From Dubosiella newyorkensis (GTDB lineage: Bacteria > Bacillota_I > Bacilli_A > Erysipelotrichales > Erysipelotrichaceae), in assembly GCF_001945605.1 (NCBI RefSeq), contig NZ_MPKA01000065.1, positions 1-32,000 on the forward strand: a stretch of DNA of 32,000 bases, given 5' to 3'. The notes beneath the pieces were generated by a model. It saw nothing but the letters and a program-made list of their open reading frames with translations. It made no database searches and had not been told where the DNA came from. The position numbers were made by a program, and so were the translations under genes. Position 1 is the first letter of the stretch, and each line of letters starts with the position of its first letter. Of the stretch, positions 1,104-19,877 are shown piece by piece.

Positions 1104-2387
1104 ATGACGACGATTCGAAAAGCCGAGATTTTCTCGATTCTCCTCTTCTTGTTTTTGAGCTTGGCATGTTTGTTTTATCCTTACAACACGGCTATGGTCC
1201 TCATTCGAATGACTGCTTTGATCGGGCTCGCTTCAGGACTTCTCTTCTTTTTCGACGCGTTTCGTAAAAAAAGAAGTCTCGATCTAGTCGCTTCGATCGT
1301 ATGTCTTCTTTATTTTGGCTGGGCGCTTTTATGGTGGAAAAGAGACGCTGATATATTGAGGACATTGTTCATCGTATATTACGCCATCATCGCAGCCGTC
1401 TTTTATATTCAAACGATCCTGGATCTAAAAGATCATTCTTCAGATTGGAAGGCGGAGCTTTTATTGGCCTTTTTCTATACCTGCTTTGTGGTTTTTAGTT
1501 CCTATCGTTTGGCGACGATCTCCCATATGCTCGCTTTGTATTTCTTTATTCAAGCGTGTCAAATGGGATTGGAACTTTATTTTTTTTCCTCCCCTTATAA
1601 TGCGCGCTACTATTCATTTCGTGATTGGATCATGCTTCCGGCATGGTTCGTGAGCGTATTTCCAAGTTTTGTGATGGGACATTTAGTTGAGAAAAAAATG
1701 CACGATGAAAATACACATTTTGATGCGAAAAAAAGCGAAGACAAGCCTGATTTGATCGTTTGGATCCATACTGGTGAATATGGTACAACACTCTACGGTC
1801 ATATGACTTTTTCTCGTGATTCGATCATGTATTCGTACGGTGATTACGATCTCGCTAAAATGAAGTGGTTCAAAACGATGGGTCCTGGCATCTTCTTTTC
1901 TGTCAACGATCAGATCTATGCGAACAATTGCTGTATCGTCGAGCATTGTCCTCTCTTCGCGTATGGGATCAAGCTCACGGATGAACAAAAACAAAAGTTC
2001 GAAGCGATGAAAGATTCGATCTTATCGCAAACGATCCGTTGGCATTGTCCGATGCAGGAAGCGTATTTCAAAACAGGTCACGCTTCCCTTGCCGATTTTG
2101 AAAAAGATTATGCCAGCCGCTTATGGGATCGGACGTGCGCGATCTTTCGGATGTATACGAAAGGCCAATGGGCCTGGTATTCTTTGCTTGGAAACAATTG
2201 CTCAAATTATTCGAGCGCGATGCTCAATGAGATCGGACTCCATATCCCGGTTTCAAAAGGAATCGTTTCACCTGGCGAGTTTTTCGAATATTTCGAGCAA
2301 GCGTATCAAGATCCGGATTCTTGTGTGATTTCGAAAAGCTGGCATTCTGCCAAAGTGCCTTCCACCTTATTTGATACGATCGACTAA
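1104..2387 (+). CDS. Polytopic membrane protein with a C-terminal PPPDE/permuted-papain-like soluble domain
   Basis: I start the ORF at ATG 1104 (MTTIRKAEIF...), 2 nt after the DUF1653 stop; the track's 1005 start overlaps that gene. The first ~200 aa form about six hydrophobic helices. The C-terminal half carries IHTGEYGTTLYGH and YSLLGNNCSNYSSAMLNEIGLHIP motifs. Confidence 0.7.
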   Translation: MTTIRKAEIFSILLFLFLSLACLFYPYNTAMVLIRMTALIGLASGLLFFFDAFRKKRSLDLVASIVCLLYFGWALLWWKRDADILRTLFIVYYAIIAAVFYIQTILDLKDHSSDWKAELLLAFFYTCFVVFSSYRLATISHMLALYFFIQACQMGLELYFFSSPYNARYYSFRDWIMLPAWFVSVFPSFVMGHLVEKKMHDENTHFDAKKSEDKPDLIVWIHTGEYGTTLYGHMTFSRDSIMYSYGDYDLAKMKWFKTMGPGIFFSVNDQIYANNCCIVEHCPLFAYGIKLTDEQKQKFEAMKDSILSQTIRWHCPMQEAYFKTGHASLADFEKDYASRLWDRTCAIFRMYTKGQWAWYSLLGNNCSNYSSAMLNEIGLHIPVSKGIVSPGEFFEYFEQAYQDPDSCVISKSWHSAKVPSTLFDTID

Positions 2388-2419
2388 AAAAGCCATGACG
2401 AATGTCATGGTTTTCTTTT
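2386..2419. terminator. Bidirectional terminator between convergent genes
   Basis: AAAAA-GCCATGAC-gaat-GTCATGG-TTTTCTTTT. A-tract upstream and T-tract downstream, sitting between the stop codons at 2387 and 2418. Confidence 0.55.
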
Positions 2420-2762
2420 AAGACAGCGTGGCTTGATAGCTTTCTTCGATCAATTTTTGAATCGTTTCATCGGTTAGGGTTCCATCTAATACAAGCGAGA
2501 TCCACGTTTTTTTATTCATATGCCATCCAGGATAGATCCCTTTTTCTTGAAGCAAATCATCGGCTCCCTCTTTCGGAATGTGCAGATCGATCACCTGGAT
2601 CGGTTCTTTGCTTTGGATCTTGAGCTTGGATGCTAGGATTTCCATGAGCAATCCAAACCATTTTTCGTTATTTCGATGCCGGAAAATGCAATAGTCTGGA
2701 AATTTTTCCCATAAGAATTCAGGTTCGACATCGTATTTGGCTTTGATATAATCAAGAACCAT
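2418..2762 (-). CDS. MmcQ/YjbR family protein
   Basis: MVLDYIKAKYDVEPEFLWEKFPDYCIFRHRNNEKWFGLLM...GIYPGWHMNKKTWISLVLDG is the YjbR-family pattern. ATG at 2762 is preferred over the TTG at 2783. Confidence 0.75.
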   Translation of the reverse strand: MVLDYIKAKYDVEPEFLWEKFPDYCIFRHRNNEKWFGLLMEILASKLKIQSKEPIQVIDLHIPKEGADDLLQEKGIYPGWHMNKKTWISLVLDGTLTDETIQKLIEESYQATLS

Positions 2763-3072
2763 GCGTGGCTGCTTTTTTTTCAAAATAAGCAGGAATCGTG
2801 CAAGATTGGCGTATCTTTTCTAGAAGGTCTCGGATCGAGTTTCGAACACAATCTATATAGGGTCCTTTAGCGGACGTTTGATATAAAGTATACAGTTCAA
2901 GACTCTTCTCATCTTCCACTTTGATCTGTAGCTTTTGGTCTTTGATCACGATCGTAAGGAGCAGCTCATCGTTTTGGATCTTTTGCGTATAGGTTAGAGG
3001 AGATCTTTTGAAACCAAACTCTTTCAGTTTATTTTTTTCAAAAAGGAATCCATCAAAATCTACCGTTTCCAT
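2752..3072 (-). CDS. Hypothetical protein; possibly the detached N-terminal module of the downstream YjbR protein
   Basis: 106-aa ORF with a GAGGTG RBS 7 nt upstream. Its 3' end overlaps the YjbR ORF in another frame at an A8 tract (T8 on the plus strand, 2773-2780). Confidence 0.5.
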   Translation of the reverse strand: METVDFDGFLFEKNKLKEFGFKRSPLTYTQKIQNDELLLTIVIKDQKLQIKVEDEKSLELYTLYQTSAKGPYIDCVRNSIRDLLEKIRQSCTIPAYFEKKAATHGS

Positions 3073-3119
3073 CCTTTATCACCTCTTCATTTAGGGGAAA
3101 TAATAAATATAAAAATATC

Positions 3120-3710
3120 TTATTCTTTAATTTGAGCGAGATGAGAAACGATCGAATCGACGATCGTAAAGTTTTTTCCATCATAATCAACTTCGTAGAT
3201 CACGCAGTTTATGAATCGGATCGCATCTTTAGCATGGTCGGGATCGATCCTTTCTAGTAAATTCATAAGATTGGCGCCATGGGCGACGATCAAGATCGTT
3301 TTGGCATCGTCTTCATGAACGATGTCGTTGAGCGTCTTTTCCATACGATCTTGAACTTTTTGAGGGTCTTCGCCACCAAATTGCGTATACGACGTGTTCA
3401 AAAGATCGTGTCCAAACGATAAGATCAAATCAGTGCTCGCTCCTTCTAAGCGTCCGAAGCCAAATTCTTTCAATCCTTCATATCTTGTATAAGGAAGGTC
3501 GCTAATGTGCTTTAAGGTCTCCTCGGTTCTTAAAAGTGTCGAACAGCACGCTTTGTCAAATGTGATCTGCCGGTTTCTAAAATACTGCCCGACCGCTTTT
3601 GATTCCGCGACTCCTTTGGGAGTGAGAGGCGAATCGCACCAGCCTTGGATCTTATGTTTTTGATTGAACAGCGTTTGTCCATGTCGGACAAGAAACAATT
3701 TTTTACGCAT
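3120..3710 (-). CDS. Histidine phosphatase (phosphoglycerate-mutase-like) family protein
   Basis: LFLVRHGQTLFN (RHG catalytic motif), GWCDSPLTPKG and VAHGANL. Start placed at ATG 3710 (MRKKLFLVRHGQT). Confidence 0.85.
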   Translation of the reverse strand: MRKKLFLVRHGQTLFNQKHKIQGWCDSPLTPKGVAESKAVGQYFRNRQITFDKACCSTLLRTEETLKHISDLPYTRYEGLKEFGFGRLEGASTDLILSFGHDLLNTSYTQFGGEDPQKVQDRMEKTLNDIVHEDDAKTILIVAHGANLMNLLERIDPDHAKDAIRFINCVIYEVDYDGKNFTIVDSIVSHLAQIKE

Positions 3711-4301
3711 CCTCTTCCTCTTTGAGATCTTTGACGTGTTCATCGATCACTTGTTTGAGATTGAAATGTCCGTCTTCATATTCGTATTCGTAGATGATGC
3801 AGTTGTTGAATTTTCGCATTTTTCTCGCTTTGGATGGCTCGACTCGGTTGGCGAAGCGAAAAGAGTTGGATCCATGCATCACGATCAAGATCGACTTGGC
3901 GTCATCTTCTTCCATGATCGTTCTAATCGCTTTTTCGACGCGGTCTTCCACTTGTTTTGGCGTCTCTCCTCCGAATTGAACGTAATAGGTATTGAGATCG
4001 TCTTTTTTTTGACAAGCTAGATCGGTGCTCTCGCCTTCTAGAAGGCCATAGTTGAATTCTTTGAGCGCATCGTATCTTGAATAATCGAGATCGGTAATAT
4101 CTTTGAGTGTTTCTTCGGTTCGATGCAGCGTTGAGCAGCACGCTTTATCGAATACGACGCCTCTTTTTTCAAAATACTCTTTGTGGCTTTGGCTTGGCGA
4201 TGACCGAGTTTTGTGAGGGGCGAATCGCACCAGCCTTGGATCCGATTCTTTTTATTGAATAAAGTTTGTCCATGACGAACGATATATAATTTCTTTTGCA
4301 T
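3703..4301 (-). pseudogene. Frameshifted tandem paralogue of the histidine phosphatase
   Basis: The N-terminus MQKKLYIVRHGQTLFNKKNRIQGWCDSPLTKLGHRQAKATK (frame of ORF 4038-4352; GGAGG RBS before ATG 4301) continues as EYFEKRGVVFDKACCSTLHRTEETL... in the frame of ORF 3703-4230. Alignment to the downstream paralogue places a 1-nt loss near 4180-4183 (acaaag where acaaaag is expected). Confidence 0.75.
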
Positions 4302-4376
4302 GCTCTTTCCTCCATACGCTTCTATATTAGAATCGTTCGAGGTGATTTTCAATTTTTAATGTTCTAGAATGAAGCT

Positions 4377-5060
4377 ATGAATACGTATTCCAATACGATC
4401 GATCAAATTCAAGTCGATTTGATCGAATCTTCTCAAAAAAATGCGCCAACCGTGGTTTTGATCATGGGAATCGATGAACATGAGTCCGTTCTTTCTCGAG
4501 CCCGCAAACAACAATGTCCTTCCTTTCACCTTGTCTCGCTTTCTCATTTCAATTGGGATCAAGATCTTTCTCCTTGGCCAAGCAAGTCTATAATTTATCC
4601 GAACGATGATTTTGCGGGAAAAGCCAATCAATTTTTGAAAACAATCGAAACTAAGATCAAAGATTGGGTCGATTCCTTGCTTCCTGTAGAAGCGGGTCCT
4701 TGGATCATCGCGGGGTATTCGATGGGTGGATTGTTCGCAATGTATTGTCCGTATCGTTCTAGCTTGTTTACAAACGTATGTTGCGTGTCAGGTTCTGTTT
4801 GGTATCCTGGTTTTGAGAGCTTTGCCACCACCGAAACTATGATCAAAAAGCCAAAATCTGTCTATTTTTCTTTAGGAAGAAAGGAAATTCAGGAACGAAA
4901 TCCATATTTACAGACGACTGGCAAGATCATGGAAAGCTTGGAAGAGGATTATAAAAAGAAAGGGATCAAGACAACGATGGTTTGGAACAATGGAAACCAT
5001 TTTACCGATCCTGTAGGGCGAATGGTCGACGCATTGATCTGGACGTTGCATCAAAAATAA
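4377..5060 (+). CDS. Alpha/beta hydrolase (esterase-family)
   Basis: 227-aa ORF with the nucleophile elbow GYSMGG, and a C-terminal NGNH motif consistent with a serine esterase. Confidence 0.7.
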   Translation: MNTYSNTIDQIQVDLIESSQKNAPTVVLIMGIDEHESVLSRARKQQCPSFHLVSLSHFNWDQDLSPWPSKSIIYPNDDFAGKANQFLKTIETKIKDWVDSLLPVEAGPWIIAGYSMGGLFAMYCPYRSSLFTNVCCVSGSVWYPGFESFATTETMIKKPKSVYFSLGRKEIQERNPYLQTTGKIMESLEEDYKKKGIKTTMVWNNGNHFTDPVGRMVDALIWTLHQK

Positions 5061-5073
5061 CCAAACAAAAAAA

Positions 5074-5457
5074 TCACTTTTTTAAGGAAATCATCTTTCC
5101 AATCCCTACGATCAAAATCAAAGGCAATGCTTTCAAAAAGCCGAAAAGATAGATCCAATAAAGACTGATCAATCCTACCACGATCCATGAAACAAGCCTC
5201 CCAGAGAGATACGCTTTTTGAATTATATTTTGATTTGTCACATTCAACATTGTTTTCGCGCAAACGAATTCGAACGCTCCGATCAGGCCAAGAATGAGCA
5301 AGACAAGAAAAGCTGTATTCCAGTTTTTTTGATAGCCAACAAAAACAAATAGAAGCAAGCACACGAGGATATAAGGAACGATCGATTTGATCGTCCGTTC
5401 ATAGTTTTTTTGAGGATCTTTACTAATCATCAAGAGATGAAACCAAGATTGATTCAT
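5074..5457 (-). CDS. Small integral membrane protein, function unknown
   Basis: 127-aa ORF with 3-4 hydrophobic helices. Native GATC-rich composition. Confidence 0.55.
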   Translation of the reverse strand: MNQSWFHLLMISKDPQKNYERTIKSIVPYILVCLLLFVFVGYQKNWNTAFLVLLILGLIGAFEFVCAKTMLNVTNQNIIQKAYLSGRLVSWIVVGLISLYWIYLFGFLKALPLILIVGIGKMISLKK

Positions 5458-5477
5458 CCGTATTTTTCCTTTCTAAA

Positions 5478-5508
5478 ATGCAGGTCAACATAATAAGCTG
5501 ACCTGCAT
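5478..5508 (-). terminator. Hairpin terminator downstream of the secreted-protein gene (left edge of the islet)
   Basis: 10-bp stem ATGCAGGTCA / TGACCTGCAT with an 11-nt loop. Only a short T tract on the minus strand (cat-TTTag). Confidence 0.45.
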
Positions 5509-5545
5509 AATAATTTTTCAAGTTTATAAATCTTTTCGCTTATAA

Positions 5546-6121
5546 TTATGAAGGCCGAACTGGATCAAACCATGCTCCATTTACTGGTCCGTAGATGAGC
5601 ACATTCCGTGGACTATAAGCTCGAATATTCATATTAATTGCCTTTTTATAATAGGATCCTGTGTAAGAAGAATAGTAATTTTCTATGCTTTTATATTGGG
5701 TCATTGTTATAAACAGAGGATTTCCTTCTGTTGCAATTGCAGCCGCAATACTACCAGCAATCGTCCAACCTATACCTGGAATAGTTGCTACAATGGCGCC
5801 TGCCATTGCTACTGCGCCTCTCCATGGTATTTCATAAGATAAGTTGATTGCAGAATTTGAATCTAATGTAGCTTGAGGTTGAGGATAATCAATAATTGTA
5901 GGGATTATTTCTTCACCATCAATAGTAAGAATATGGGTTGTATGATTAATCGTGATGATATGTTCTTCACCATAACCATATGCTTTGATTTGTTCAGTAT
6001 AAGCATCGATCATTTTAGATTCAAATGTTATATCTTGTTTTGATTCAGCAAATATAGGAGAAAAGCTAAATAATGATAGTAAAAAAACAAGTATAGAAGC
6101 CAATAGTTTATTAATTTTCAT
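5546..6121 (-). CDS. Secreted protein of unknown family with a Gly/Ala-rich hydrophobic core
   Basis: Start at ATG 6121, preceded by GGAGG (6125-6131 region). Signal peptide MKINKLLASILVFLLSLFSFSPIFA|ESKQ. Internal GAVAMAGAIVATIPGIGWTIAGSIAAAIATEG segment. Confidence 0.7.
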   Translation of the reverse strand: MKINKLLASILVFLLSLFSFSPIFAESKQDITFESKMIDAYTEQIKAYGYGEEHIITINHTTHILTIDGEEIIPTIIDYPQPQATLDSNSAINLSYEIPWRGAVAMAGAIVATIPGIGWTIAGSIAAAIATEGNPLFITMTQYKSIENYYSSYTGSYYKKAINMNIRAYSPRNVLIYGPVNGAWFDPVRPS

Positions 6122-6214
6122 TTTACTCCTCCATTTTCTATAATCGTCAGACATACTTTTAAATATTAAGTATTATAAACTAAATTTAAGAGCTCTTGAT
6201 ATCATTGAGATAAG

Positions 6215-6373
6215 TTATTGACCTAATTCTAAACCATGAAGTGGAGCAAGTTGAGTAATCCAACAATAATCCTTAATATTATGTTGAACACAAAGCTTTT
6301 GCTCGACTTGAACACCACCAAACATATAGAATAGGATTGAAACAGTTAAAACTGTTCTTTTTAATGACTTCAC
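6215..6373 (-). CDS. Candidate unannotated 52-aa secreted pro-peptide (below the ORF-track size cut-off)
   Basis: AAAGGAGA RBS, 5 nt, then GTG at 6373. Translation: VKSLKRTVLTVSILFYMFGGVQVEQKLCVQHNIKDYCWITQLAPLHGLELGQ*. It has a basic n-region and a hydrophobic h-region. It lies upstream of, and co-oriented with, the secreted-protein gene, and divergent from the HTH regulator. Confidence 0.35.
   Translation of the reverse strand: MKSLKRTVLTVSILFYMFGGVQVEQKLCVQHNIKDYCWITQLAPLHGLELGQ
6337..6365 (+). promoter_or_regulatory. Putative sigma-A promoter of the regulator gene with an operator-like inverted repeat in the spacer
   Basis: TTGAAA (6337-6342), 17 nt, TTTAAT (6360-6365). The inverted repeat AACAGTT-aa-AACTGTT occupies 6341-6356. 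Confidence 0.4.
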
Positions 6374-6412
6374 TAAGATCTCCTTTCTTTTCCCAGGTTA
6401 TGATTCTATTAT

Positions 6413-7696
6413 ATGATTATGGAAAAAAATTTAAAACATATTAAAATTCGAGAACCATATAAGTCGGCTTCTCCTTTCCTTTTTGGATTTTATGAAAAAA
6501 TTAAGCGAAAAGAATTGGGGTACTCATTAGATAATGTCTCCAAAGACTTATCCATCTCAAAAGGAAATTTGAGCGAAATGGAGAATGGACTCCGAATTAT
6601 GAAAATTGAGATCTTTCATCGTTTTTTGACTCGCTACAATATTGAATTTGCTGAAGATTTGAAATACTTAGTTGAAATGAGAGAGATTCTAATTCAGATT
6701 TTTGAAGCATTTTTAAGATTTAATCGTAAAAAACAAGAAAAAGTTCGAGAACAATTCGAAAGTATGGATAGAAGCTGGGAAAATACATCTGGCTTTTTAA
6801 TTGGTCTACTTATTGAGTATTTTATTCGATCTGTGTTAGATCATAAAAGTCAAGAAGACGTATTTGAGCTTTTAGTTTCGAGTGAAAGCTGCTTATCAAA
6901 TGATGAAAAAGCTCTATTATATATGATTCGTGGAATGGAAGGACGGCGGAATACAACATTTAAGAATAAGGAAACCTTCTTTGAACAAGCACTAAATTAT
7001 GTAGATGAGAAAGAAATGAATGATTTGGAAGCACTGATTGAGTATTATCAAATAATGGATGAAATTCGCTCGGGTTCTACTTTCGAGGTTTATACAAAAT
7101 GTAGTCAAGTGCGGAACAAATTTTATAACTCACATAATTATATTCGGGCTCTTTATCTTGATAATCTAGAAGCGGTAAGTATTACTTATTTAAGAGCTTA
7201 TTCAAGTGCTTATCGTCGATTTGAAACCTTACTTTACAATATGGAATATGTAGATGATCCTTATTTAAGATTTTGCGTTGTTCAAAATGCTATTTTGGTA
7301 CTATGTGTTCTGAAAGAATATAAAAAAGCTTTAGAATGGATGAAGAAGGAAAGAAATACTTTTTCTTATGGTTTGTCAAATTTTGTGTTCGCGCCATATT
7401 GTTTTTATATGTTAGATGATTTAGAAGAGGCGAATAATACGATTAAAAAGATCAAACCCTATGTAAAGGATCAAAGTGATCAACTTCTTTTGAACATTAT
7501 AAAATATGCGATTGAAAACAATGAAAATGCCTTTTTTGAAGATTCTCAACGATTGCTGATTTTGGATCAAAAAAACAAGAAGCAAGAAAATATAGAATTA
7601 ACATATCGTTTCATGATCTCCTTTTATAAAAAAAATGGCATTGAGTCAAGACAAATCAAATTACAAGAAGAATACATTTCGTTCTTAACAAGATAA
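6413..7696 (+). CDS. XRE-type HTH regulator with a long helical-repeat (TPR-like) C-terminal domain; RNPP/NprR-like
   Basis: 427 aa. The N-terminal LGYSLDNVSKDLSISKGNLSEMENGLRIMKIEIFHRFLTRYNIEF is an XRE HTH. The remaining ~350 aa are helical and rich in Y/L/E/K, as in TPR-type peptide-binding domains. Confidence 0.7.
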   Translation: MIMEKNLKHIKIREPYKSASPFLFGFYEKIKRKELGYSLDNVSKDLSISKGNLSEMENGLRIMKIEIFHRFLTRYNIEFAEDLKYLVEMREILIQIFEAFLRFNRKKQEKVREQFESMDRSWENTSGFLIGLLIEYFIRSVLDHKSQEDVFELLVSSESCLSNDEKALLYMIRGMEGRRNTTFKNKETFFEQALNYVDEKEMNDLEALIEYYQIMDEIRSGSTFEVYTKCSQVRNKFYNSHNYIRALYLDNLEAVSITYLRAYSSAYRRFETLLYNMEYVDDPYLRFCVVQNAILVLCVLKEYKKALEWMKKERNTFSYGLSNFVFAPYCFYMLDDLEEANNTIKKIKPYVKDQSDQLLLNIIKYAIENNENAFFEDSQRLLILDQKNKKQENIELTYRFMISFYKKNGIESRQIKLQEEYISFLTR

Positions 7697-7718
7697 AAGC
7701 TCCCATCAGGGAGCTTTT
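7695..7718. terminator. Bidirectional terminator shared by the regulator gene and ppdK
   Basis: AAAAGCTCCC-atca-GGGAGCTTTT between the convergent stops at 7696 and 7723. Confidence 0.7.
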
Positions 7719-7722
7719 GATT

Positions 7723-10356
7723 TTATGCTTTTTCGTTTTTGATCGTTGCTTGCGCTGCAGCCAAACGAGCGATCGGTACCCGGAATGGCGAGCAAGAAAC
7801 ATAGTTCAAGCCGACTTTATCGACAAATTCGATCGAAGCTGGGTCGCCGCCATGTTCACCGCAAACACCAAGCTTCATGTCTGGACGTGTCTTACGACCA
7901 AGATTCGCTGCCATTTCGATCAGCTTGCCAACACCGTTTTGGTCAAGACGAGCGAATGGATCGTTTTCGTAAATCTTAGCCGCATAATATTGAGGCAAGA
8001 ATTTACCAGCGTCATCGCGCGAGAATCCAAATGTGAGCTGCGTCAAGTCGTTCGTTCCAAAGGAGAAGAATTCCGCTTCTTCCGCGATCTCGTCAGCAAG
8101 AAGAGCCGCGCGAGGAACTTCGATCATCGTACCAACGTGGTATTTCATATCCGATCCTGCTTCTTTCAAGATCGCGTCCGCTGTCTCGGTAACGAGCTTT
8201 TTCACATATTTCAATTCCGCGAGATCGCCAATGAGAGGAAGCATGATCTCAGGTTCGATGTTCCATTCTGGATGTTTTTTATTCACATTCAGAGCCGCTT
8301 TGATCACAGCCGCTGTTTGCATTTTCGCGATACCAGGATTGGAAACATCCAAACGGGATCCACGATGACCCATCATAGGATTGACTTCGTGCAAGTTCGA
8401 GATCACTTGATTGAGCTCTGCTTCCGAAATATTCATTTCATTGGCAAGTTCTTTAATGTCTTCCGGATTTGTTGGCACGAATTCGTGAAGAGGTGGATCC
8501 AAGTAACGGATCGTGACTGGTCTTCCCTCCATCGCTTCATAAATACCTTCGAAATCTTTTTGCTGCATCGGTTCGAGCTTGTCGAGAGCCGCTTGCATTT
8601 GATCATCGTTTTTCGCGACGATCATTTCACGGATCGCTTTGATCTTATCGCCTTCGAAGAACATATGTTCTGTACGAACAAGACCAATGCCTTCCGCACC
8701 AAAATCGACCGCCTGTTTCGCGTCTTTTGGCGTATCCGCGTTCGTTCTCACTTTTAAACGACGACGTTTGTCAGCCCATTCCATGAAACGTTCAAAATCA
8801 CCAGAAATTTCAGCCGGAACCGTTTCGATCGCTTCGCCATATACATTTCCGGTCGAACCATCGATCGAGATCCAGTCGCCACGTTTGAACGTTTTTCCGT
8901 TCACTTTGAAGGATCCTTCTTCTTCGTTCATTTCAATATCGCCAGCGCCCGATACGCAGCAAGCGCCCATTCCACGAGCAACGACAGCCGCATGGCTCGT
9001 CATACCGCCACGCACTGTCAAGATTCCTTGCGAAACCGCCATACCTTCGATATCTTCTGGAGAAGTTTCTAAACGAACGAGAATGACTTTTTTGCCTTTA
9101 TCCGCTTCTTCTTTCGCTTCCTCGGCTGTGAATACGATTTGACCGCAACCTGCACCAGGCGATGCTGGAAGTGCACTTGTGATCACTTCGGCAGCTTCTA
9201 AAGCTTCTTTAGCAAATGTAGGATGCAACAAAGAATCAAGCTGTTGTGGTTCGACCATCATCAAAGCTTCATCTGTGCTGATCAAACCTTCATCCACCAT
9301 ATCGCAAGCGATCTTCAAAGCCGCCTGCGCGGTTCTTTTTCCATTTCGAGTCTGCAGCATGAAGAGCTTACCGTTTTCGATCGTAAACTCCATATCCTGC
9401 ATATTTTTATAATGATTTTCTAATTTCGAGCAAATTTCAACAAATTGATCGTAGGCAGTCGGAGAAACTTCCTTAAGCTGATCGATCTTCTTTGGAGTAC
9501 GAACACCCGCAACGACATCTTCGCCTTGCGCATTCATCAAGAATTCACCATACAATTTATTTTCCCCCGTTGCAGGGTTTCTCGTGAACGCGACACCTGT
9601 ACCACAGTCTTCGCCCATATTTCCAAAGACCATCATTTGTACGTTGACCGCTGTCCCCCAGTTTGAAGGAATATCGTTCATGCGGCGATAGTAGATCGCG
9701 CGCTCATTGTTCCAAGAACGGAATACCGCTTCGATCGCTTCCATCATCTGCGTTTTTGGATCCGTTGGGAAATCTTCTCCTAATTCAGAACGATAAAACT
9801 CTTTGAATTTCTCAACGAGCGTTTTCATATCGTCGGCTGTCAATTCCAAATCGTCCTTGATGCCTCTTTCCGCTTTGACTTCGTCGATGATCTCTTCAAA
9901 CCGTTTTTTCGAAAGGCCTTTTACGACATCCGCGAACATTTGGATAAAACGACGATACGAATCATACGCGAAACGCTCATTACCCGATTTTTCGGCGATC
10001 GTGTTGGCCACGACATCGTTGATCCCTAGATTCAAGATCGTATCCATCATTCCTGGCATGCTCGCACGCGCGCCAGAACGAACCGATACTAAAAGCGGAT
10101 TTTCTTGATCCCCGAATTTCTTCCCAGTCTCTTCTTCGAGTTTTTCAAGATATTCCATGATTTGGGCTTGGATCTCGTCACTGATGACTTCCCCATCATC
10201 ATAGTACTTATTGCAGGCTTCTGTCGTGATCGTGAATCCGTTTGGAACGGGCATTCCTAATTTTGACATTTCTGCCAAGTTGGCTCCTTTTCCCCCGAGG
10301 AGATTGCGCATGTTGGCATCACCCTCGTTGAACAAGTAAACATATTTAGTTTCCAT
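7723..10356 (-). CDS. ppdK: Pyruvate, phosphate dikinase
   Basis: 877 aa. N-terminal ATP-grasp LLGGKGANLAEM, phospho-His loop RGGMTSHAAVVARG, C-terminal PEP/pyruvate domain with CGEHGGDP. GGAGG-type RBS. Confidence 0.97.
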   Translation of the reverse strand: METKYVYLFNEGDANMRNLLGGKGANLAEMSKLGMPVPNGFTITTEACNKYYDDGEVISDEIQAQIMEYLEKLEEETGKKFGDQENPLLVSVRSGARASMPGMMDTILNLGINDVVANTIAEKSGNERFAYDSYRRFIQMFADVVKGLSKKRFEEIIDEVKAERGIKDDLELTADDMKTLVEKFKEFYRSELGEDFPTDPKTQMMEAIEAVFRSWNNERAIYYRRMNDIPSNWGTAVNVQMMVFGNMGEDCGTGVAFTRNPATGENKLYGEFLMNAQGEDVVAGVRTPKKIDQLKEVSPTAYDQFVEICSKLENHYKNMQDMEFTIENGKLFMLQTRNGKRTAQAALKIACDMVDEGLISTDEALMMVEPQQLDSLLHPTFAKEALEAAEVITSALPASPGAGCGQIVFTAEEAKEEADKGKKVILVRLETSPEDIEGMAVSQGILTVRGGMTSHAAVVARGMGACCVSGAGDIEMNEEEGSFKVNGKTFKRGDWISIDGSTGNVYGEAIETVPAEISGDFERFMEWADKRRRLKVRTNADTPKDAKQAVDFGAEGIGLVRTEHMFFEGDKIKAIREMIVAKNDDQMQAALDKLEPMQQKDFEGIYEAMEGRPVTIRYLDPPLHEFVPTNPEDIKELANEMNISEAELNQVISNLHEVNPMMGHRGSRLDVSNPGIAKMQTAAVIKAALNVNKKHPEWNIEPEIMLPLIGDLAELKYVKKLVTETADAILKEAGSDMKYHVGTMIEVPRAALLADEIAEEAEFFSFGTNDLTQLTFGFSRDDAGKFLPQYYAAKIYENDPFARLDQNGVGKLIEMAANLGRKTRPDMKLGVCGEHGGDPASIEFVDKVGLNYVSCSPFRVPIARLAAAQATIKNEKA

Positions 10357-10377
10357 GTTTTCCTCCCTTTATGTAAT

Positions 10378-10391
10378 TGTAACCGTTTACA
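10378..10391. promoter_or_regulatory. cre (CcpA-binding) box in the ppdK leader
   Basis: TGTAACCGTTTACA matches TGWAANCGNTNWCA on both strands. It lies between the predicted -10 and the RBS. Confidence 0.6.
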
Positions 10392-10399
10392 TCATAAGG

Positions 10400-10408
10400 A
10401 TTATACCA
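10400..10408 (-). promoter_or_regulatory. Extended -10 element of the ppdK promoter
   Basis: The minus strand reads TGGTATAAT (TGnTATAAT). A weak -35 (TTTTCA) lies 16 nt upstream. Confidence 0.45.
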
Positions 10409-10458
10409 TACTTTTCACAAATGAAAACCGTTTTTTGTTTTTTTCAATTGATATGCTC

Positions 10459-10489
10459 AAAAAAAGCCGGTTTTTTACCGGTTTTTTTT
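10459..10489. terminator. Terminator after the lactate dehydrogenase gene
   Basis: A7-G-CCGGT-ttttt-ACCGG-T8, immediately downstream of the stop at 10492. Confidence 0.6.
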
Positions 10490-10491
10490 AT

Positions 10492-11904
10492 TTATAATTG
10501 AGCAATTTTATGAGGGTTTAAAATATTTTTTGCATCAAATACTTGCTTGATCCCATTCATCAAATCAATATTGTCTTTCGCCAAACTTTCTTTGAGATAC
10601 ATCTTCTTTGCATATCCGATACCATGCTCGCCAGACACTTGCCCATTGAGCTCTCTTGCTTTGGCATAAATAAGATCCATCGCTTTGTTCAAACGCTTTT
10701 CCCATTCTTCGTCGCTCAAGTTATCTTTCAGCATATAGGCATGCAAATTTCCGTCCCCCGCATGTCCAAAACTTTTGATCCTTAATCCAACTTCGCGCTG
10801 GATCGAATGCAGGTATTCGACCATGTCATTGACATAGCTTCTAGGCACGACCATATCGACCTCGTCCATATATGTAGTCGATCCTTTGATCGCTTCCAAA
10901 AACGCGCCTCTAGCCTTCCAGATCGACTCGTCGCGCTCGGCGGTATCCGAGATCAAGACATCCAAAGCACCCTCTTCCAAGCAAAGATCCGCGACTTTTG
11001 CATACGCCCGCTCGATCTCATCTTGCGAATTGCCATCAAATTTCAACAACAAATACGCTTCGCTTTGATGGTCCGGGAACGCTTTGCCAAGATACTCTTC
11101 CGCGTCCTCGATGACTTCTTTTTGCATAAATTCGATCGCGGTCGGGATCGCCTTCGATTTTATGATCTTTGGTACGGTCTGGATCGCCTTTTCAAGCGAA
11201 GGGAACGGAATCAACAAAGAAATCGTTTTCTTAGGGAGCGGTAATAGCTTCAAGATCGCCTTCGTGACGATTCCTAGCGTACCTTCTGAACCGATGATCA
11301 GATCTTTCAAATCGTATCCAGAAGAGTTTTTCACGACTTTGCCGCCAAACTCTACGATATCCCCATTCGGAAGGACGACTTCGAGCCCACGAACGAAATC
11401 GCGCGTAACTCCATATTTAACAGCCCGCATTCCACCTGCGTTGGTGGAAATGTTGCCACCGATCGTCGCCGATTTTTCACCGGGATCTGGTGGATAGAAC
11501 AAGTCATGATCTTCTACGAAAGCCGTAAGATCCATCAACAAAACACCCGGCTCGACTGTCAACGTCAAATTCTCTTCATCAAGCTCCAATATGTTGTTCA
11601 TCAAAGAAAGGTCGAGAATGATTCCATGCTCCATCGGCACACATGATCCAACTAAACCTGTCCCAGAACCTCTAGCCGTGACAGGGATCGAATGCTCGTA
11701 GGCATATTTCATGACGGCCGAAACTTCATTCGCAGAAACTGGCTTAATGACAAGTTCTGGCCAAGAAGATGTCCCGCCAAGTTCATCGTGACTGTAATCT
11801 TCAGAAATCTGCTCTTTCCAAAGCATCCGCTGCTCTTCTCCAATCAACGCTCTTAAATTTAAAACATCGTTTTCATCGATCGTATGATATGTCCAGTTAG
11901 GCAT
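10492..11904 (-). CDS. lctD: FAD-linked oxidase (GlcD family); predicted Etf-dependent lactate dehydrogenase
   Basis: 470 aa with FAD-binding PCMH-type domain motifs ([19 protein letters not shown]) and a C-terminal GEHGIG. AAAGGAG RBS. It overlaps etfA by 8 nt. The context matches the lctBCD clusters of anaerobic Firmicutes. Confidence 0.8.
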
Positions 11905-13099
11905 TTTGTACTCCTTTCTTTGCTTCTATTTTCTCGATCAAAGATGGGACGATCTCGTACAGATCGCCGACCAATCCATAATTCGCGTTTTTAAAGATCG
12001 GCGCGTCAGGATCCATATCGATCGCTACGATTTGATCCGAATGGTCCATTCCTGCCGTGAATTGGATCGCGCCCGATACGCCGCAGGTGATGATCAATTT
12101 AGGACGGACGGTTCTTCCAGAAAGACCAATTTGTTGTTTGGCGCTCATAAAGCCATTCTCTACAAGAGGACGAGTGCAGGCAAGTTTTCCATGCAGAAGG
12201 TCGGCGAGTTTTTGAAGCATTTCTAGATCGCTTTCATTTTTTACGCCACGTCCTGCTACCACAAGGACATCCGCGCTTTCGATCGATTCTTCCGCTTCTT
12301 TTTTCAAAATATCGAGGACCTCGATCTGGCTGTCGACCATCGAATTGGTGGATGCGCAATCAATGATGATCCCTTCCTCTTCGTCTTTTCTTTCTGGGGC
12401 GTTCATGATCTTATAACGAACGGTCGCCATTTGCGGACGATGATTTGGCGTTTTGATGTGCGCCATGATATTACCGCCAAAAGCAGGACGGATCTGGTTA
12501 AGATCGCTATTGTCTTCCATTTCGAGAATCGTGCAATCCGCTGTAAGACCTGTCTTCATTCGAGCGGCGACTCTTGGCGCTAATTGTCGTCCGATCGTTG
12601 TCGCACCCACTAAGATCGAAGATGGTTTATGTTTTTGAATAAAGTCTTCGAACACATTCGTGTACGCATCGATCTTAAAACGATCCAATCGTTCATCATC
12701 ATAAACATACACTTCGTCCGCACCATAATGGAGGAGCTCATGGGCTAGATCCGATACATTCGATCCGATCAGCAAGGCTTGTACTGGCTGATCGATCACG
12801 TGAGCCATATCTTTGGCTTTTCCAAGCAATTCGAAGGTAACAGGATGGATCGCGCCATCGACTTGATCGACATATACACAGATCCCGTTCCAGACACTTT
12901 TATCGATTTGTGGCTGCACTTGATCTTCCACGAATTCGACAGCGCCTTTCGGTCCTTTGCGAACGCACAACTTGCACATTTTGCAGCCAGCGTTGATATT
13001 CAATCCATCTGCTGTCATTTCCATAGCTTTGAAAGGACAAAGATCGATCAACACTTGAGGGTCATCTATATTTTCTGGATGAAGGACTAGTTTTGCCAT
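11897..13099 (-). CDS. etfA: Electron transfer flavoprotein alpha subunit with an N-terminal ferredoxin-like 4Fe-4S domain
   Basis: Start at ATG 13099 (AAAGGAG, 6 nt, ATG). Cys pattern CPFKAM...CKMCKLC in the first 60 aa, then an EtfA fold ([32 protein letters not shown]). Confidence 0.9.
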
Positions 13100-13112
13100 A
13101 ACGAACTCCTTT

Positions 13113-13901
13113 CTAGACAAATTTTAATTCTTCGATTTTATGGAACAATTGATCCGCTAAAACAGCTGAACTTCCATCCCACATTTCTTTTTCTTTTGAA
13201 GAAGTTGGTGGGAAGATCCTTTGAACTTGGGTCGGAGATCCGTTCAATCCATAGTGGGACGCGTCTGTATCTTCCATATCTTTTAAACTCAATACTTTGA
13301 TTTCACGATCTTTCGTCGCTTTCTTTTTCACATACGAAGGCAGACGAGGCATAAAGATATCTTGATCGACCGACAGAAGACATGGAAGCGAAATCTTGGC
13401 CACTTCAACTTCTTGTGGTAGATCCATCGAGATCGTGATCGAATCATCATGGACTTCTTTGATCTCTAATACATTATTCACACTTGGGATCTGCAGCCAT
13501 TCTGCGATTTCGGCTCCAACTTGGGCCGTATCGCCATCAATGGTCTGCTTACCGCATAAGATCAAATCATAATTTCCGCTCGACTTGATTCCTTGCGATA
13601 ATGTATAGCTTGTCGCCAACACATCCGCTCCGCCAAAGGAACGATCAGAAACGAGGATTCCATGATCAGCTCCCATCGCGAAGGCTTCACGGATCACTTC
13701 TTGCGCTTGTGGAGGCCCCATCGAGATCACATCGACGACCCCTCCCATTTTCTCTTGGATACGGAATGCCGTCTCTAAAGCATAAAGATCGTACGGATTC
13801 ATCTTTGAAGCGGCGCCGTCACGCTTGATTACACCAGTAACTGGATCCACTTCCACCTTATTGCTTTCAGGAACTTGTTTGATACAAACTAGAATATTCA
13901 T
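13113..13901 (-). CDS. etfB: Electron transfer flavoprotein beta subunit
   Basis: Start at ATG 13901 (AAGGAG, 6 nt, ATG). MNILVCIKQVPE..., NPYDLYALE and LILCGKQTIDGDTAQVG. Confidence 0.9.
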   Translation of the reverse strand: MNILVCIKQVPESNKVEVDPVTGVIKRDGAASKMNPYDLYALETAFRIQEKMGGVVDVISMGPPQAQEVIREAFAMGADHGILVSDRSFGGADVLATSYTLSQGIKSSGNYDLILCGKQTIDGDTAQVGAEIAEWLQIPSVNNVLEIKEVHDDSITISMDLPQEVEVAKISLPCLLSVDQDIFMPRLPSYVKKKATKDREIKVLSLKDMEDTDASHYGLNGSPTQVQRIFPPTSSKEKEMWDGSSAVLADQLFHKIEELKFV

Positions 13902-13925
13902 GTCTACTCCTTTCATATTATGCTA

Positions 13926-13939
13926 TGGTAGCGCTTACA
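13926..13939. promoter_or_regulatory. cre-like box just upstream of etfB
   Basis: The minus strand reads aTGTAAGCGCTACCa. It fits WTGNAANCGNWNNCW completely and TGWAANCGNTNWCA at 13 of 14 positions. Confidence 0.5.
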
Positions 13940-13977
13940 TTGAAGTTCTAAATAAAGAGCCTCGAAGGCTCGTTTGT

Positions 13978-14007
13978 ATTCTATTTATTGGTCCTACCAA
14001 TTTACAA
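13978..14007 (-). promoter_or_regulatory. Putative lctBCD promoter with an LldR/FadR-type operator in the spacer
   Basis: Minus strand: TTGTAA (14002-14007), 18 nt, TAGAAT (13978-13983). The spacer holds the perfect palindrome ATTGGTaggACCAAT (13987-14001), i.e. a TGGTnnnACCA core. Confidence 0.5.
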
Positions 14008-14010
14008 CTA

Positions 14011-14044
14011 TAAAATACCCCTTGCTTCTTTCAAAAGCAAGGGG
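14011..14044 (-). terminator. Terminator after the GntR-family regulator gene
   Basis: 10-bp stem CCCCTTGCTT / AAGCAAGGGG with a 7-nt loop, followed on the minus strand by TATTTTAT. Confidence 0.65.
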
Positions 14045-14075
14045 TTTAACCGTAAAAGTGTAAGCGGTTTCTTGA

Positions 14076-14753
14076 CTATTTTTTATATTGTTCGATGTAT
14101 CCAAAATGGTCATGCAAGCCTTGCAGACTTAAATCAAGATCGCTTTGGATCAAGCCTTCGACCATTTTTCGATGGGCCTCCTCCAAAAGATGTGAGCTCT
14201 CCATGCCTCTTACGATCCTTTGACGCATCGATTTGATATGAGAATCCATGAAGCTCGTGAACGCGTTATAGTTGGCGATCAAAAAATCGTTTCCGCACGC
14301 GTTGACGATCGTCGAATGCAGCATCTGGTCGTATTGGATCTTTTCTTCTTCGTTTTTTGAAGCGATCAAAGCCGAGAGATTCGTTTTGAGCGCTTTGATA
14401 TCCTCTTCTTTCATACGGTGGAGCGAAAGCTTGAGCGCTTCTTCTTCGATCATCCATCGAAACTCGATGACTTGTTCTTCATCGATCCCTTTTAGAAAAT
14501 ACATAAAAGAAAGCATTTCAGACATCGTCTCATCAAAATTCAAAGAAATATAATTACCGGAACCTTGAACAGGCGTAATGATCCCAATATTTTCAAGGAC
14601 GCGAAGACCTTCTCGGATCGAGTTGCGGCTCATCGACAACGAACTAGCAAGCTCGCGTTCAGTAGGAAGCTTACTTCCAGGTAACAATCTTCCTTGAACG
14701 ATTTCATTTTTTATATACGAAACGACTTTATTGTGTAGTTTGCTTGTATCCAT
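14076..14753 (-). CDS. GntR/FadR-family transcriptional regulator (LldR/LctA-like)
   Basis: Start at ATG 14753 (MDTSKLHNKVVSYIKNEIVQGRLLPGSKLPTERELASSLSMSRNSIREGLRVLE is a GntR winged HTH). The C-terminus is helical and FCD-like. It sits upstream of etfBA plus the GlcD-type dehydrogenase. Confidence 0.85.
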   Translation of the reverse strand: MDTSKLHNKVVSYIKNEIVQGRLLPGSKLPTERELASSLSMSRNSIREGLRVLENIGIITPVQGSGNYISLNFDETMSEMLSFMYFLKGIDEEQVIEFRWMIEEEALKLSLHRMKEEDIKALKTNLSALIASKNEEEKIQYDQMLHSTIVNACGNDFLIANYNAFTSFMDSHIKSMRQRIVRGMESSHLLEEAHRKMVEGLIQSDLDLSLQGLHDHFGYIEQYKK

Positions 14754-14755
14754 GC

Positions 14756-16162: not shown

Positions 16163-16180
16163 TCCCTTCCCCTAACCTTT

Positions 16181-18910: not shown

Positions 18911-19125
18911 ATTTTCCCTCCAAATAAAAAAACGTCCTCGAAAGGACGTTATGAACGCGGTACCACCTTACTTCCCGCAAAAGCGGGCTCTTGACAGGAT
19001 AACGGCCTAAACCGGGTTGATCTACTGCTTTCGATCCACCAGCCAAGAAGGGATACCCAATCAATTCCGCGTACAGCTCTTCCACCAAACGAGCTGCTCT
19101 CTATTCGTTTCTCTTGATTCGACGC
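18911..19125 (-). promoter_or_regulatory. T-box riboswitch leader of ileS
   Basis: The minus strand shows, in order: AGAGAG, a distal hairpin with GGTGG, the T-box sequence AAGGTGGTACCGCG (18956-18969), and the terminator AACGTCCT-ttcg-AGGACGTT plus a T tract (18925-18950) just before the GGAGGG RBS. AUC at 19052-19054 is the likely specifier. Confidence 0.85.
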
Positions 19126-19139
19126 GTCTTCTTCATTGC

Positions 19140-19877
19140 TTATATATATTGTTCAAATCGCAAAACGAGTCGGTCTTTTTTTGTTTTCGCATCAATCCCT
19201 TTGTATTGAAATCGACCCACTTTGCGGATAGAAACAAAGTCATTATCGCATAATTGTGTGTTTTCATCAAGAACAATATCGTTGACCTTCACATACTGCG
19301 CTTTGAGCATTTCTTTCGCTTTGGAGCGAGAACAATGCGCCAATTGACTAACGACGCTATCGAGTCTCAAGGAAGGCGCGATGATCGTCATTTCTTTTCT
19401 TCGAATTTGCGTTTGTATCTTTACTTCTTTTGGCTGAAAAGAAAGCGAGGTCCTTTTGGCGCATGTTAGCTCGCTTTGAATAAAGCTTGCCATTTCGTAG
19501 GTCGTAAAAACGATGATTCGATCGTCTTCGATCAATAGATCGCCAACGACTTCCCTTTCAATTCCCAATGCCATCAGAGCGCCAAGAAGATCTTTGTGCT
19601 CGATACTTTGAAAACGGTGATCATATTTAGAGGCGAGAGCGCAGACGTTGTTTGTGTCTTCTTCCTCATAAAGAGAAAGAATCGCCCGCTTTCTTTCCGC
19701 TTGTTCATAGCCACCATCCCACTTCACGATCAGATCTTTCGGGATAAGAGAAAGAAGGATATTTTGTTGCGGGATCGATAAAAAAGAGGTCACTACGCAT
19801 CTTCTTTGCATTGCCTCTTTGATCCAATGCTTTGCTTGCTGAAGAAATTCGTTGTGACCTTTTACATTCAAATACAT
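19140..19877 (-). CDS. ylmH: YlmH-family RNA-binding protein (S4 domain)
   Basis: 245 aa. C-terminal S4-like LRLDSVVSQLAHCSRSKAKEMLKAQYVKVND. Its position between sepF and ileS matches the Bacillus ylm cluster. Confidence 0.8.
   Translation of the reverse strand: MYLNVKGHNEFLQQAKHWIKEAMQRRCVVTSFLSIPQQNILLSLIPKDLIVKWDGGYEQAERKRAILSLYEEEDTNNVCALASKYDHRFQSIEHKDLLGALMALGIEREVVGDLLIEDDRIIVFTTYEMASFIQSELTCAKRTSLSFQPKEVKIQTQIRRKEMTIIAPSLRLDSVVSQLAHCSRSKAKEMLKAQYVKVNDIVLDENTQLCDNDFVSIRKVGRFQYKGIDAKTKKDRLVLRFEQYI

Follow-up and report, generated by a model that had tools for sequence, protein, structure and literature searches.

The first 32,000 nt of contig NZ_MPKA01000065.1 (assembly GCF_001945605.1, forward strand) of Dubosiella newyorkensis, a member of the Erysipelotrichaceae from the mouse gut, were analysed, and this whole stretch is referred to here as the window. 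Positions 5458–7722 were found to form an AT-rich islet holding genes for a 427-aa regulator, a divergent 52-codon open reading frame (ORF; pep52) and a predicted secreted protein of 191 aa (sec191), to which the adjoining gene for a 127-aa membrane protein (mem127) has to be added (Table 1). The four genes are interpreted below as a candidate peptide quorum-sensing cassette, with the regulator as putative receptor, pep52 as putative pheromone precursor and sec191 and mem127 as the regulated cargo. A preliminary description of the sequence had listed three of these genes, and its ORF coordinates proved correct, but it regarded mem127 as a native gene. The latter is linked to sec191, is absent from the corresponding site in Dubosiella muris and is a cassette member instead.

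Table 1. Features of the D. newyorkensis cassette and its surroundings (positions refer to the window).
Feature	Positions	Strand	Remarks
Stretch without D. muris counterpart	4302..7728		Esterase gene and four-gene cassette
mem127, 127 aa	5074..5457	-	About 4 transmembrane segments; sec191 partner
Intercistronic stem-loop sec191/mem127	5478..5508	-	-21 kcal/mol, z -6.5
sec191, predicted secreted protein, 191 aa	5546..6121	-	Sec-type signal peptide
Perfect palindrome AAGAGCTCTT	6188..6197		Candidate operator for an HTH dimer
pep52, 52-codon pre-pro-peptide ORF	6215..6373	-	Divergent from regulator
Predicted sigma-70-like promoter of pep52	6408..6435	-	-35 TTTAAA at 6435-6430, 16-nt spacer, -10 TATAAT at 6413-6408
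Regulator, 427 aa	6413..7696	+	XRE-type HTH and 18 helices (9 TPR-like pairs)
Bidirectional intrinsic terminator	7694..7719		-16.9 and -16.3 kcal/mol, z ~-4.3

The average G+C content of the islet is 31.2%, compared with 43.1% in the remaining window, and the ten lowest-GC intervals of 2265 nt (minimum 0.310, median 0.428, over all window positions) all overlap it. It is thus the lowest-GC stretch of the window, in agreement with the abrupt compositional break first reported for it. The G+C content at third codon positions (GC3) is 0.19 in sec191, 0.19 in pep52 and 0.26 in the regulator gene, as against 0.47–0.50 in ppdK and its neighbours. The tetramer GATC occurs at 13 sites in the islet (5.7/kb vs 17.2/kb elsewhere in the window); this count, and the 19 sites given earlier for nt 1–1000, are both exact. 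Relative to the base-composition expectation, GATC is 2.0 times as frequent in the islet and 4.6 times as frequent outside it, so that the depletion is more than an effect of G+C content. GATC is the top over-represented tetramer of the window, with 524 sites or ~1 per 60 nt (4.4 times the base-composition expectation and 1.5 times the Markov expectation), and with an excess of only 2.0 times the islet therefore lacks this signature of the host. In ppdK the GATC sites lie mostly in codon phase 2 (nnG ATC). As in the preliminary description, no integrase, transposase or boundary direct repeat was found in the islet, nor any tRNA gene. Insertion sequence (IS) elements do adjoin related cassettes at other loci (L001, L004, and L059).

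The regulator, for which M1 (6413) or M3 (6419) is a possible start codon, shows neither a signal peptide nor a transmembrane segment in its sequence. Sequence searches gave a sub-threshold match to an XRE-type helix-turn-helix (HTH) domain over residues 29–83, with Pfam families HTH_3, HTH_19, and HTH_31 at E ~1e-3 (1.1e-3 for HTH_3, below the gathering cut-off) and PADLOC HTH_VI at 4.9e-5. The helix SKGNLSEMENG of this domain is invariant in the regulator family. An AlphaFold2 model built on 12 homologues (predicted local distance difference test score, pLDDT, 88.6; predicted template modelling score, pTM, 0.82) has an HTH helical bundle at about residues 23–74 followed by 18 consecutive helices resembling tetratricopeptide repeats (TPRs). 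When the model was compared with the PDB by Foldseek, nearly all of the 35 matches at E<=1e-3 were RNPP receptors. The top folds were the Rap proteins of Phi3T and Phi105, NprR (apo and with NprX), RapF/J/H/I, the Rap protein of pLS20, AimR and PlcR, with probability 1.00, E-values down to 1e-5 and target-normalised TM-scores of 0.5–0.71 over ~360–430 columns. The modelled structure points to a cytoplasmic, receptor-type protein of the 9-TPR RNPP fold class. A different fold would have refuted the preliminary description; an HTH with a TPR-like superhelix was obtained at the confidence given above.

At the sequence level the picture is different. The NCBIfam scan assigned the regulator to no family, its TPR part is covered by neither Pfam nor NCBIfam, and a profile of the regulator family searched against all PDB sequences gave no RNPP match even at E<=10, only spurious ones. 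Judged by its sequence, the regulator falls outside every RRNPPA subfamily described so far (Rap, Rgg, NprR, PlcR, PrgX, AimR, ComR), and the earlier assignment to an NprR/PlcR/Rap type thus holds for the fold but not for membership in a described subfamily. Close homologues number only 12 in a set of 5.8 billion proteins, and a cut-off of E<=1e-3 yielded 160 representatives from a set of 1.84 billion; the database names of these relatives are generic HTH or TPR ones, for example in Allobaculum. Loci of the family were located in Dubosiella, Allobaculum, Firmicutes bacterium M10-2, other Erysipelotrichaceae and metagenomes, the metagenome scan being based on a 15-sequence regulator alignment as one of 42 sequences was too divergent. 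An arbitrium-like or Rap-like phage origin was considered and rejected, as viral contigs (IMG/VR) contained no relatives of the regulator or of sec191.

The divergent ORF, pep52, starts with GTG in the window and with ATG in strain L030, and a Shine-Dalgarno sequence (AAAGGAG, 6386-6380) lies 6 nt 5' of the GTG at 6373. Its product has a predicted signal peptide at about residues 1–20 (basic n-region, hydrophobic h-region, small-residue c-region), a loop of the form C28-x2-H31-x3-D35-x-C37 followed by W, and then P-x-H-G47 with the tail LELGQ. An ORF of 50–53 codons was found divergent from the regulator in 10/10 distinct systems for which upstream DNA is available, over regulator identities from 65% to 24%. 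In the propeptide alignment M1, C28, H31, D35, C37, and G47 are invariant, C37 is followed by an aromatic residue and G47 stands within P-x-[G/H]-G, while the signal-like N-termini mostly end in a site of the GxA/GxS type. The tails after [G/H]G are of 5–7 aa and include LELGQ, KELGQ, YESGQ, TETTMED, NGEVSE, NGEIFG, NGLIDE, and EEIWH. The pattern C..H...D.C matched only these ORFs when 55 loci were translated in six frames (1.2 M residues), and gave 0 false positives.

Comparison of pep52 between the window and M10-2 gave pN 0.30 and pS 0.86, and between M10-2 and D. muris dN 0.10 and dS 0.35; gene callers have also annotated it as a gene in several assemblies. Owing to its divergent linkage in ten systems, the shared motif and these substitution ratios, pep52 is considered a genuine gene under purifying selection and the family-specific partner of the regulator, and the 52-codon ORF with a signal-like N-terminus that was originally noticed in the sequence is borne out. 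The regulators of M10-2 and D. muris are 91–93% identical over the first 300 alignment columns and 44–56% over the last 130, and their propeptides are near-identical for 37 residues and differ in the tail. Such covariation of peptide tail and regulator C-terminus is compatible with pherotype divergence.

The predicted promoter of pep52 matches the consensus at 10/12 positions, and the relatives in M10-2, D. muris and locus L033 keep TTGTTT-17-TATAAT. The start codon of the regulator lies inside or overlaps this promoter, and the regulator mRNA should therefore start upstream, antisense to pep52, which would imply overlapping divergent transcription units. A perfect palindrome, AAGAGCTCTT (AAAGAGCTCTTT in relatives), is located 12–17 nt 3' of the pep52 stop and 5' of the cargo gene. 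It is unique in the window (0.03 expected) and occurs once each, at the equal relative position, in D. newyorkensis, M10-2, D. muris and L033, that is in front of three different cargos. A role as an RNA element was rejected because the fold of the surrounding RNA is insignificant (z 0.16), and for this reason the palindrome is treated as a DNA site and proposed as a candidate operator.

Hairpins had been described at both ends of the segment, and both folds were recovered (Table 1). Behind the left one stand only 4 U, and the Shine-Dalgarno sequence of mem127 comes immediately after them; at the equivalent sec/mem position of M10-2 there is a hairpin (-20.4 kcal/mol) whose sequence differs. 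This stem-loop is likely to be an attenuator or an mRNA-stability element and not a full terminator. The right one is an intrinsic terminator common to the regulator and the convergent ppdK gene, standing between the regulator stop (7696) and the ppdK stop (7723), and forms the right edge of the cassette.

The first cargo gene, sec191, is preceded by a Shine-Dalgarno sequence (GGAGGAG, 6132-6126) before its ATG at 6121. The AlphaFold2 model of its product (pLDDT 82.6) has a beta-rich body and a Gly/Ala-rich hydrophobic helical hairpin at residues 103–129. Only 10 homologues were found. No family was matched in Pfam, NCBIfam, PHROG or PADLOC and no fold in the PDB or BFVD (TM-score <=0.26), so that the protein fits no family now as it fitted none at first reading. 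With all four cassette proteins, searches of Pfam, NCBIfam, PHROGs, and PADLOC gave nothing but the weak HTH matches. sec191 represents an orphan family and, as modelled, an orphan fold, and is a candidate membrane-active effector.

The four-gene set is also found in M10-2, where it comprises a regulator orthologue (65% identity), a divergent 52-codon gene, a 194-aa secreted protein (72%) and a 126-aa membrane protein that is 52% identical to mem127, and sits between his genes and a transposase fragment. A 123-aa gene with 35% identity to mem127 is found beside a sec189 gene at locus L004, the two being 5 nt apart, which places the sec/mem pair in three genomic backgrounds. In addition, mem127 accompanies sec191 on 24/24 contigs, and no orphan copy without sec191 was seen among them. 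Because the pair recurs in M10-2 and L004 and mem127 is never without sec191 on the 24 contigs, mem127 is counted as a member of the cassette; it is a candidate immunity or membrane-partner protein. The layout is that of a bacteriocin with its immunity protein, with a secreted protein gene followed by a small membrane gene and with variation between strains. At L004 (positions 1456–3610), which derives from a lower-GC bacterium, sec189/mem123 stand beside genes for a 143-aa LytTR-only regulator, a 193-aa membrane protein and a HATPase_c_5 kinase, with an IS separating the pair from the LytTR/kinase cluster. The arrangement is similar to that of the LytTR systems by which streptococci control bacteriocins.

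In other systems the regulator and peptide are accompanied by different genes. The regulator-peptide pair of D. muris lies at another site and has as its cargo a 225-aa secreted protein and a 90-aa transmembrane protein. The cargo of L035/L011b consists of a Cys-rich 220-aa protein, a thioredoxin-like lipoprotein and a protein with three transmembrane segments, that of L038 of a C39-like/staphopain-like protease pair, and that of L040 of a 137-aa secreted protein, polytopic proteins and an ATP-binding cassette (ABC) ATPase. In every system the genes 3' of pep52 encode secreted proteins with membrane, ABC or thioredoxin-lipoprotein partners. A common cargo family was rejected, since the cargo proteins of different systems are mutually unrelated by BLASTP. 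The thioredoxin-fold lipoprotein of L035 (2368–2805) is encoded beside the Cys-rich secreted protein, which suggests that in some cargos disulfides are formed outside the cell, and this may be of relevance to the two invariant Cys residues of the propeptide.

Some of these loci bear traces of copying or decay. In Erysipelotrichaceae 51-3 (L011:2300-3820) and Allobaculum (L012:5456-6820) the intergenic region between peptide and regulator is duplicated, with a 5' fragment of the regulator gene, around an inserted lipoprotein gene, which suggests that the promoter module itself was copied. Two paralogous regulator-peptide systems ~5 kb apart are also present in L011. Erysipelotrichaceae bacterium OPF54 (L010:8001-8750, compared with L033:3660-6221) retains only the 3' half of the regulator, with pep52 and the adjacent 176-aa transmembrane gene deleted and the flanks otherwise identical, and thus has a decaying copy of the module.

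The edges of the insertion in D. newyorkensis were taken from blastn of the window against D. muris (L043) and from gene maps. D. muris aligns to 3719–4301 and 7729–10408 of the window, and in this species, as in another Dubosiella sp. with a 92% identical ppdK, 75 nt separate ppdK from His_Phos_1. No cassette was found beside ppdK in D. muris, the other Dubosiella sp., Faecalibaculum or Faecalicoccus. Its presence at this site is accordingly variable and not conserved throughout the family, a point that the preliminary description had left to be checked. The absence of the cassette by ppdK that was looked for in related genomes was confirmed, but the segment concerned is larger than the islet, as it also holds mem127 and an esterase gene (4377–5060) of native-like G+C content (41%).

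Within D. newyorkensis two haplotypes were distinguished. Haplotype A, the form of the window, was seen in every contig sharing the ppdK, esterase or mem127 of the window. Haplotype B (L059:10236-13574) is 98.6% identical to the window from 8000 to ~6080 and keeps the regulator, pep52, the palindrome and the sec191 leader with its first 14 codons. Past ~6080 the two haplotypes differ entirely in sequence, and sec191, mem127 and the esterase gene are replaced in haplotype B by an acidic ORF of 126 aa, an N-anchored Ig-like protein of 339 aa whose C-terminus is Cys/His-rich, an IS (DDE_Tnp_1) and clpB. A scan of GTDB representative genomes returned no D. newyorkensis locus, although the strings searched for are encoded exactly in either haplotype; possible reasons are that the module is missing from the representative of the species, or that the region is masked or unassembled there.

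The cassettes are AT-rich relative to their flanks in higher-GC hosts and not in the low-GC M10-2, where the cassette matches the G+C content of its host. It is suggested on this ground that they spread from a low-GC donor lineage. Deviant composition and absence from the orthologous site, the features expected of a genomic islet, are both found for the D. newyorkensis cassette, and argue that it was horizontally acquired. The flank of the cassette has also changed: two tandem His_Phos_1 genes (3120–4230) align to a single D. muris gene, from which a lineage-specific duplication is deduced, and extra YjbR/DUF genes are present. On the 5' side of ppdK the order mraY-mur ligase-bacA-trpS-arsC is found in D. 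muris (L043), Faecalibaculum and Faecalicoccus (L055, L056), and FAD-oxidase-electron transfer flavoprotein (ETF)-GntR-leuS instead in D. newyorkensis (10357–18910). As the gene orders differ, ppdK of D. newyorkensis has a rearrangement breakpoint on either side.

The remaining window is ordinary chromosome with leuS, tyrS, ETF, sepF, DAHP synthase and similar genes, and the product of ppdK is ~100% identical to proteins listed by NCBI under D. newyorkensis. The Rfam scan of the window gave only two hits, both outside the cassette, which are T-box leaders (RF00230; 103 and 121 bits) located 5' of leuS and tyrS at 18939–19145 and 27038–27230 and unrelated to the cassette. Conserved proteins without Pfam families, of 427 aa (1005–2387) and 468 aa (14756–16162), are syntenic in Dubosiella. 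The former was considered as a relative of the regulator and rejected, being unrelated despite its equal length.

Taken together, the cassette is read as a horizontally acquired, modular peptide quorum-sensing system of an undescribed RRNPP-type subfamily in gut Erysipelotrichaceae, with a probability of roughly 0.6. Under this reading, pep52 would be transcribed from the conserved sigma-70 promoter and exported by its Sec-type signal peptide, and would then undergo a second, extracellular cleavage, probably C-terminal to the conserved [G/H]G, to release a short variable C-terminal peptide (LELGQ or slightly longer). At high cell density the peptide would be re-imported and bind the TPR groove of the cytoplasmic regulator. 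The latter would act through the palindrome between pep52 and the cargo and so switch the expression of the sec191-mem127 operon. Once secreted, sec191 would probably be membrane-active and bacteriocin-like, with mem127 as a protein of four transmembrane segments conferring immunity or serving as its partner. That the regulator and pep52 form a receptor-propeptide pair is held with good confidence, and it seems reasonably probable that the regulator controls the adjacent cargo. The assignment of sec191 and mem127 as a bacteriocin/immunity pair, which is based on a secreted protein with a small polytopic partner that is diverse and exchangeable, is tentative, with the odds leaning slightly the other way.

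By fold and architecture the nearest described systems are NprR-NprX and Rap-Phr. NprR is likewise a cytoplasmic receptor of ~425 aa with an N-terminal XRE HTH and ~9 TPR pairs (5dbk and 4gpk are among the top fold matches), and its system likewise has a 40–50-aa Sec-type propeptide and an adjacent regulated gene for a secreted product. It differs in having no detectable sequence similarity to the regulator, in the position of nprX, which follows its receptor gene in the same direction (pep52 precedes the regulator gene and diverges from it, with overlap of the promoters), in the absence of the Cys/His/Asp/Cys loop from NprX, and in its host, the Bacillus cereus group (Bacillales) and not the Erysipelotrichaceae. 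Rap proteins gave the best Foldseek matches (8rsu, 8rtc, and 8rst, TM-score to 0.70). Phr is Sec-exported and cut to C-terminal 5–6-mers, and pherotype diversification and mosaicism are seen in both families. However, Rap has no HTH and acts by protein-protein interaction, and phr is downstream of rap and overlaps it.

AimR-AimP and PlcR-PapR share with the cassette an HTH and TPR factor, a palindromic operator and a short C-terminal peptide of an exported propeptide. AimR also aligns to the regulator over the full-length fold (~420 columns), and AimP peptides likewise end a conserved-Gly context. The TM-scores are lower, however (0.25–0.56), both systems have the gene for the peptide downstream, AimR is phage-borne and PlcR has ~285 aa and 5 TPRs. 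By gene arrangement the nearest systems are PrgX/PrgQ (pCF10) and Rgg/SHP, in which the genes for propeptide and regulator diverge. The promoters of prgQ and prgX are face-to-face with overlapping transcripts, an arrangement of which the regulator ATG inside the spacer of the predicted pep52 promoter is reminiscent, and Rgg/SHP and TprA/PhrA modules control bacteriocin or ribosomally synthesised and post-translationally modified peptide (RiPP) clusters. These receptors differ in their size of ~285–320 aa and degenerate TPR-like repeats, their short hydrophobic peptides are exported by PptAB, and neither PrgX nor Rgg is among the top fold matches. Sec-dependent bacteriocins with immunity proteins (class II/III style) resemble the cargo in that a signal-peptide protein is followed by a small multi-transmembrane protein in an AT-rich, strain-variable locus with a peptide-signalling regulator nearby, and differ in that the cassette has no homology to any bacteriocin or immunity family and in the unmatched predicted fold of sec191. 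With a modelled TPR fold, an HTH and an adjacent predicted exported propeptide, the cassette would fall within the RRNPP superfamily.

Several observations weigh against this interpretation. Export, processing and regulator binding of the peptide are steps which we infer, and the same applies to the palindrome as an operator, to whether the regulator activates or represses, and to antagonism by the cargo. Similarity to RNPP structures is moderate (TM-score 0.5–0.7, identity 10–17%). Genes for an Opp importer were not found in the 32-kb window, to which the check was confined. The covariation of peptide tail and regulator C-terminus concerns one pair and possibly a single recombination event. 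No conserved promoter of the regulator was located, the candidates at 6303–6332 and 6115–6144 being unconserved, and the palindrome is centred at ~-27 if TATAAT at 6177-6172, the one plausible candidate, is the -10 element of the cargo, which suits repression over classical activation. In the propeptide, it is the Cys-His-Asp-Cys loop and not the tail that is conserved best, which is atypical for RNPP pheromones, and the loop could be the functional part. A regulator that is an HTH-TPR factor not sensing pep52 is conceivable, with pep52 a product of the locus in its own right, such as a small secreted disulfide-looped bacteriocin or an accessory or chaperone peptide of the secreted cargo, linked to it only through the shared divergent promoter region. 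The invariant C, H, D, and C residues look like a structured core and not a short linear pheromone, the extracellular thioredoxin-like lipoprotein in one cargo set fits disulfide-containing exports, the pep52 promoter looks constitutive, and TPR folds bind non-pheromone ligands too, LGN-type eukaryotic proteins being found lower among the Foldseek matches. This is rated as rather improbable, because the top folds are specifically those of the pheromone-binding RNPP clade and the peptide-regulator pair is kept while the cargo changes completely, as expected of a receptor and its signal. Moreover, the variable tail after [G/H]G resembles a processing site with a specificity peptide, and pep52 has no conserved dedicated bacteriocin exporter or immunity gene. 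Alternatively, the signal of a quorum-sensing system could be the whole processed peptide of ~30 aa, with a C28-C37 disulfide loop or a Cys2-His-Asp metal site as the element recognised, which would be a structurally new type of pheromone. The loop residues are the only invariant positions besides M1 and G47 among partners of regulators 20–65% identical, and the cassette encodes no dedicated protease. Such a signal is decidedly improbable in view of the solved RNPP receptors that were matched, which bind linear 5–8-mers (Rap-RGHTS, NprR-NprX, AimR-arbitrium, PlcR-PapR7), and of the two paralogous systems in one genome (L011), between which a universal core would give no specificity. A short processed peptide sensed by the regulator is preferred; to our knowledge, no RNPP precedent explains the invariant loop, which may be a determinant of processing or export, or the signal itself.

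The cargo and the age of the locus can also be explained otherwise. Neither sec191 nor mem127 shows likeness to a known bacteriocin or immunity protein in Pfam, NCBIfam, the PDB or BFVD, which speaks against the assumed antagonism. Since sec191 resembles no toxin, and since lipoproteins, Ig-like surface proteins and a protease of the C39-like/staphopain-like kind that bears cell-wall-binding repeats are found among the other cargos, the products could be density-regulated surface, colonisation or nutrient-acquisition factors, with mem127 as the membrane anchor or receptor of sec191. Proteases and surface traits are frequent targets of known RNPP systems, as with NprR-nprA and the PlcR regulon (PMC9765709). 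This is unlikely given that a secreted and a small multi-transmembrane protein, presence and absence within a species and IS-associated replacement are typical of bacteriocin/immunity loci, that the pair of L004 stands beside a LytTR-type regulator cluster and that the L040 cargo is coupled to an ABC ATPase and permease-like proteins. As regards age, AT-richness could be intrinsic to the gene family and the locus old in D. newyorkensis, without recent transfer. In keeping with this, the cassette is AT-rich against its flanks in nearly every host examined, is fixed at the site in every D. newyorkensis contig read and is accompanied by no mobility gene or repeat, and the GC3 of mem127 (0.44) is native, unlike that of the other three cassette genes (0.19–0.26), which also counts against the main reading. 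An old locus is quite improbable all the same, with no cassette at the orthologous site of the sister species or of two outgroup genera, homologous modules that M10-2, D. muris and others carry at unrelated sites, in some cases beside transposases, a cassette in M10-2 that matches its low host G+C content and points to a low-GC donor, and regulators that are mosaic. Horizontal acquisition of a quorum-sensing cassette remains the favoured interpretation.

RRNPP signalling has been charted almost wholly in Bacillales, Lactobacillales and some Clostridia, while the Erysipelotrichaceae are abundant and immunologically important gut commensals. No described cell-cell signalling system for this family was found in the literature, the RRNPP surveys consulted and the supplements of RRNPP_detector contain no Erysipelotrichaceae entry, and a paper on an antibacterial D. 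newyorkensis supernatant does not address the locus. One RRNPP survey confines seven subfamilies to the Bacillales and Lactobacillales. The cassette would provide a first testable signalling system for the Erysipelotrichaceae, with a receptor, a propeptide and a candidate operator, by which density-dependent behaviour in Dubosiella and Allobaculum becomes testable, and would give a new peptide-inducible switch for bacteria that are hard to engineer. Several orphan secreted proteins become candidate narrow-spectrum antagonists, and the two cargo haplotypes of D. newyorkensis are a natural test of toxin/immunity function. The Cys/His/Asp/Cys motif, with zero false positives here, can be used to find members missed by detectors based on TPR hidden Markov models (HMMs).

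More speculatively, and with a probability clearly below even, the cassette may be the first member to be noticed of an RRNPP-type subfamily that occurs only in gut Erysipelotrichaceae (Dubosiella, Allobaculum, M10-2, and relatives), in which a precursor with the invariant loop, as a disulfide or metal site, serves in a portable switch for unrelated toxin/immunity cargos that are exchanged. If this is true, the loop-bearing precursor implies a maturation route or a pheromone chemistry new to RNPP systems, and the exchange of cargos between strains would shape strain competition in the mouse gut.

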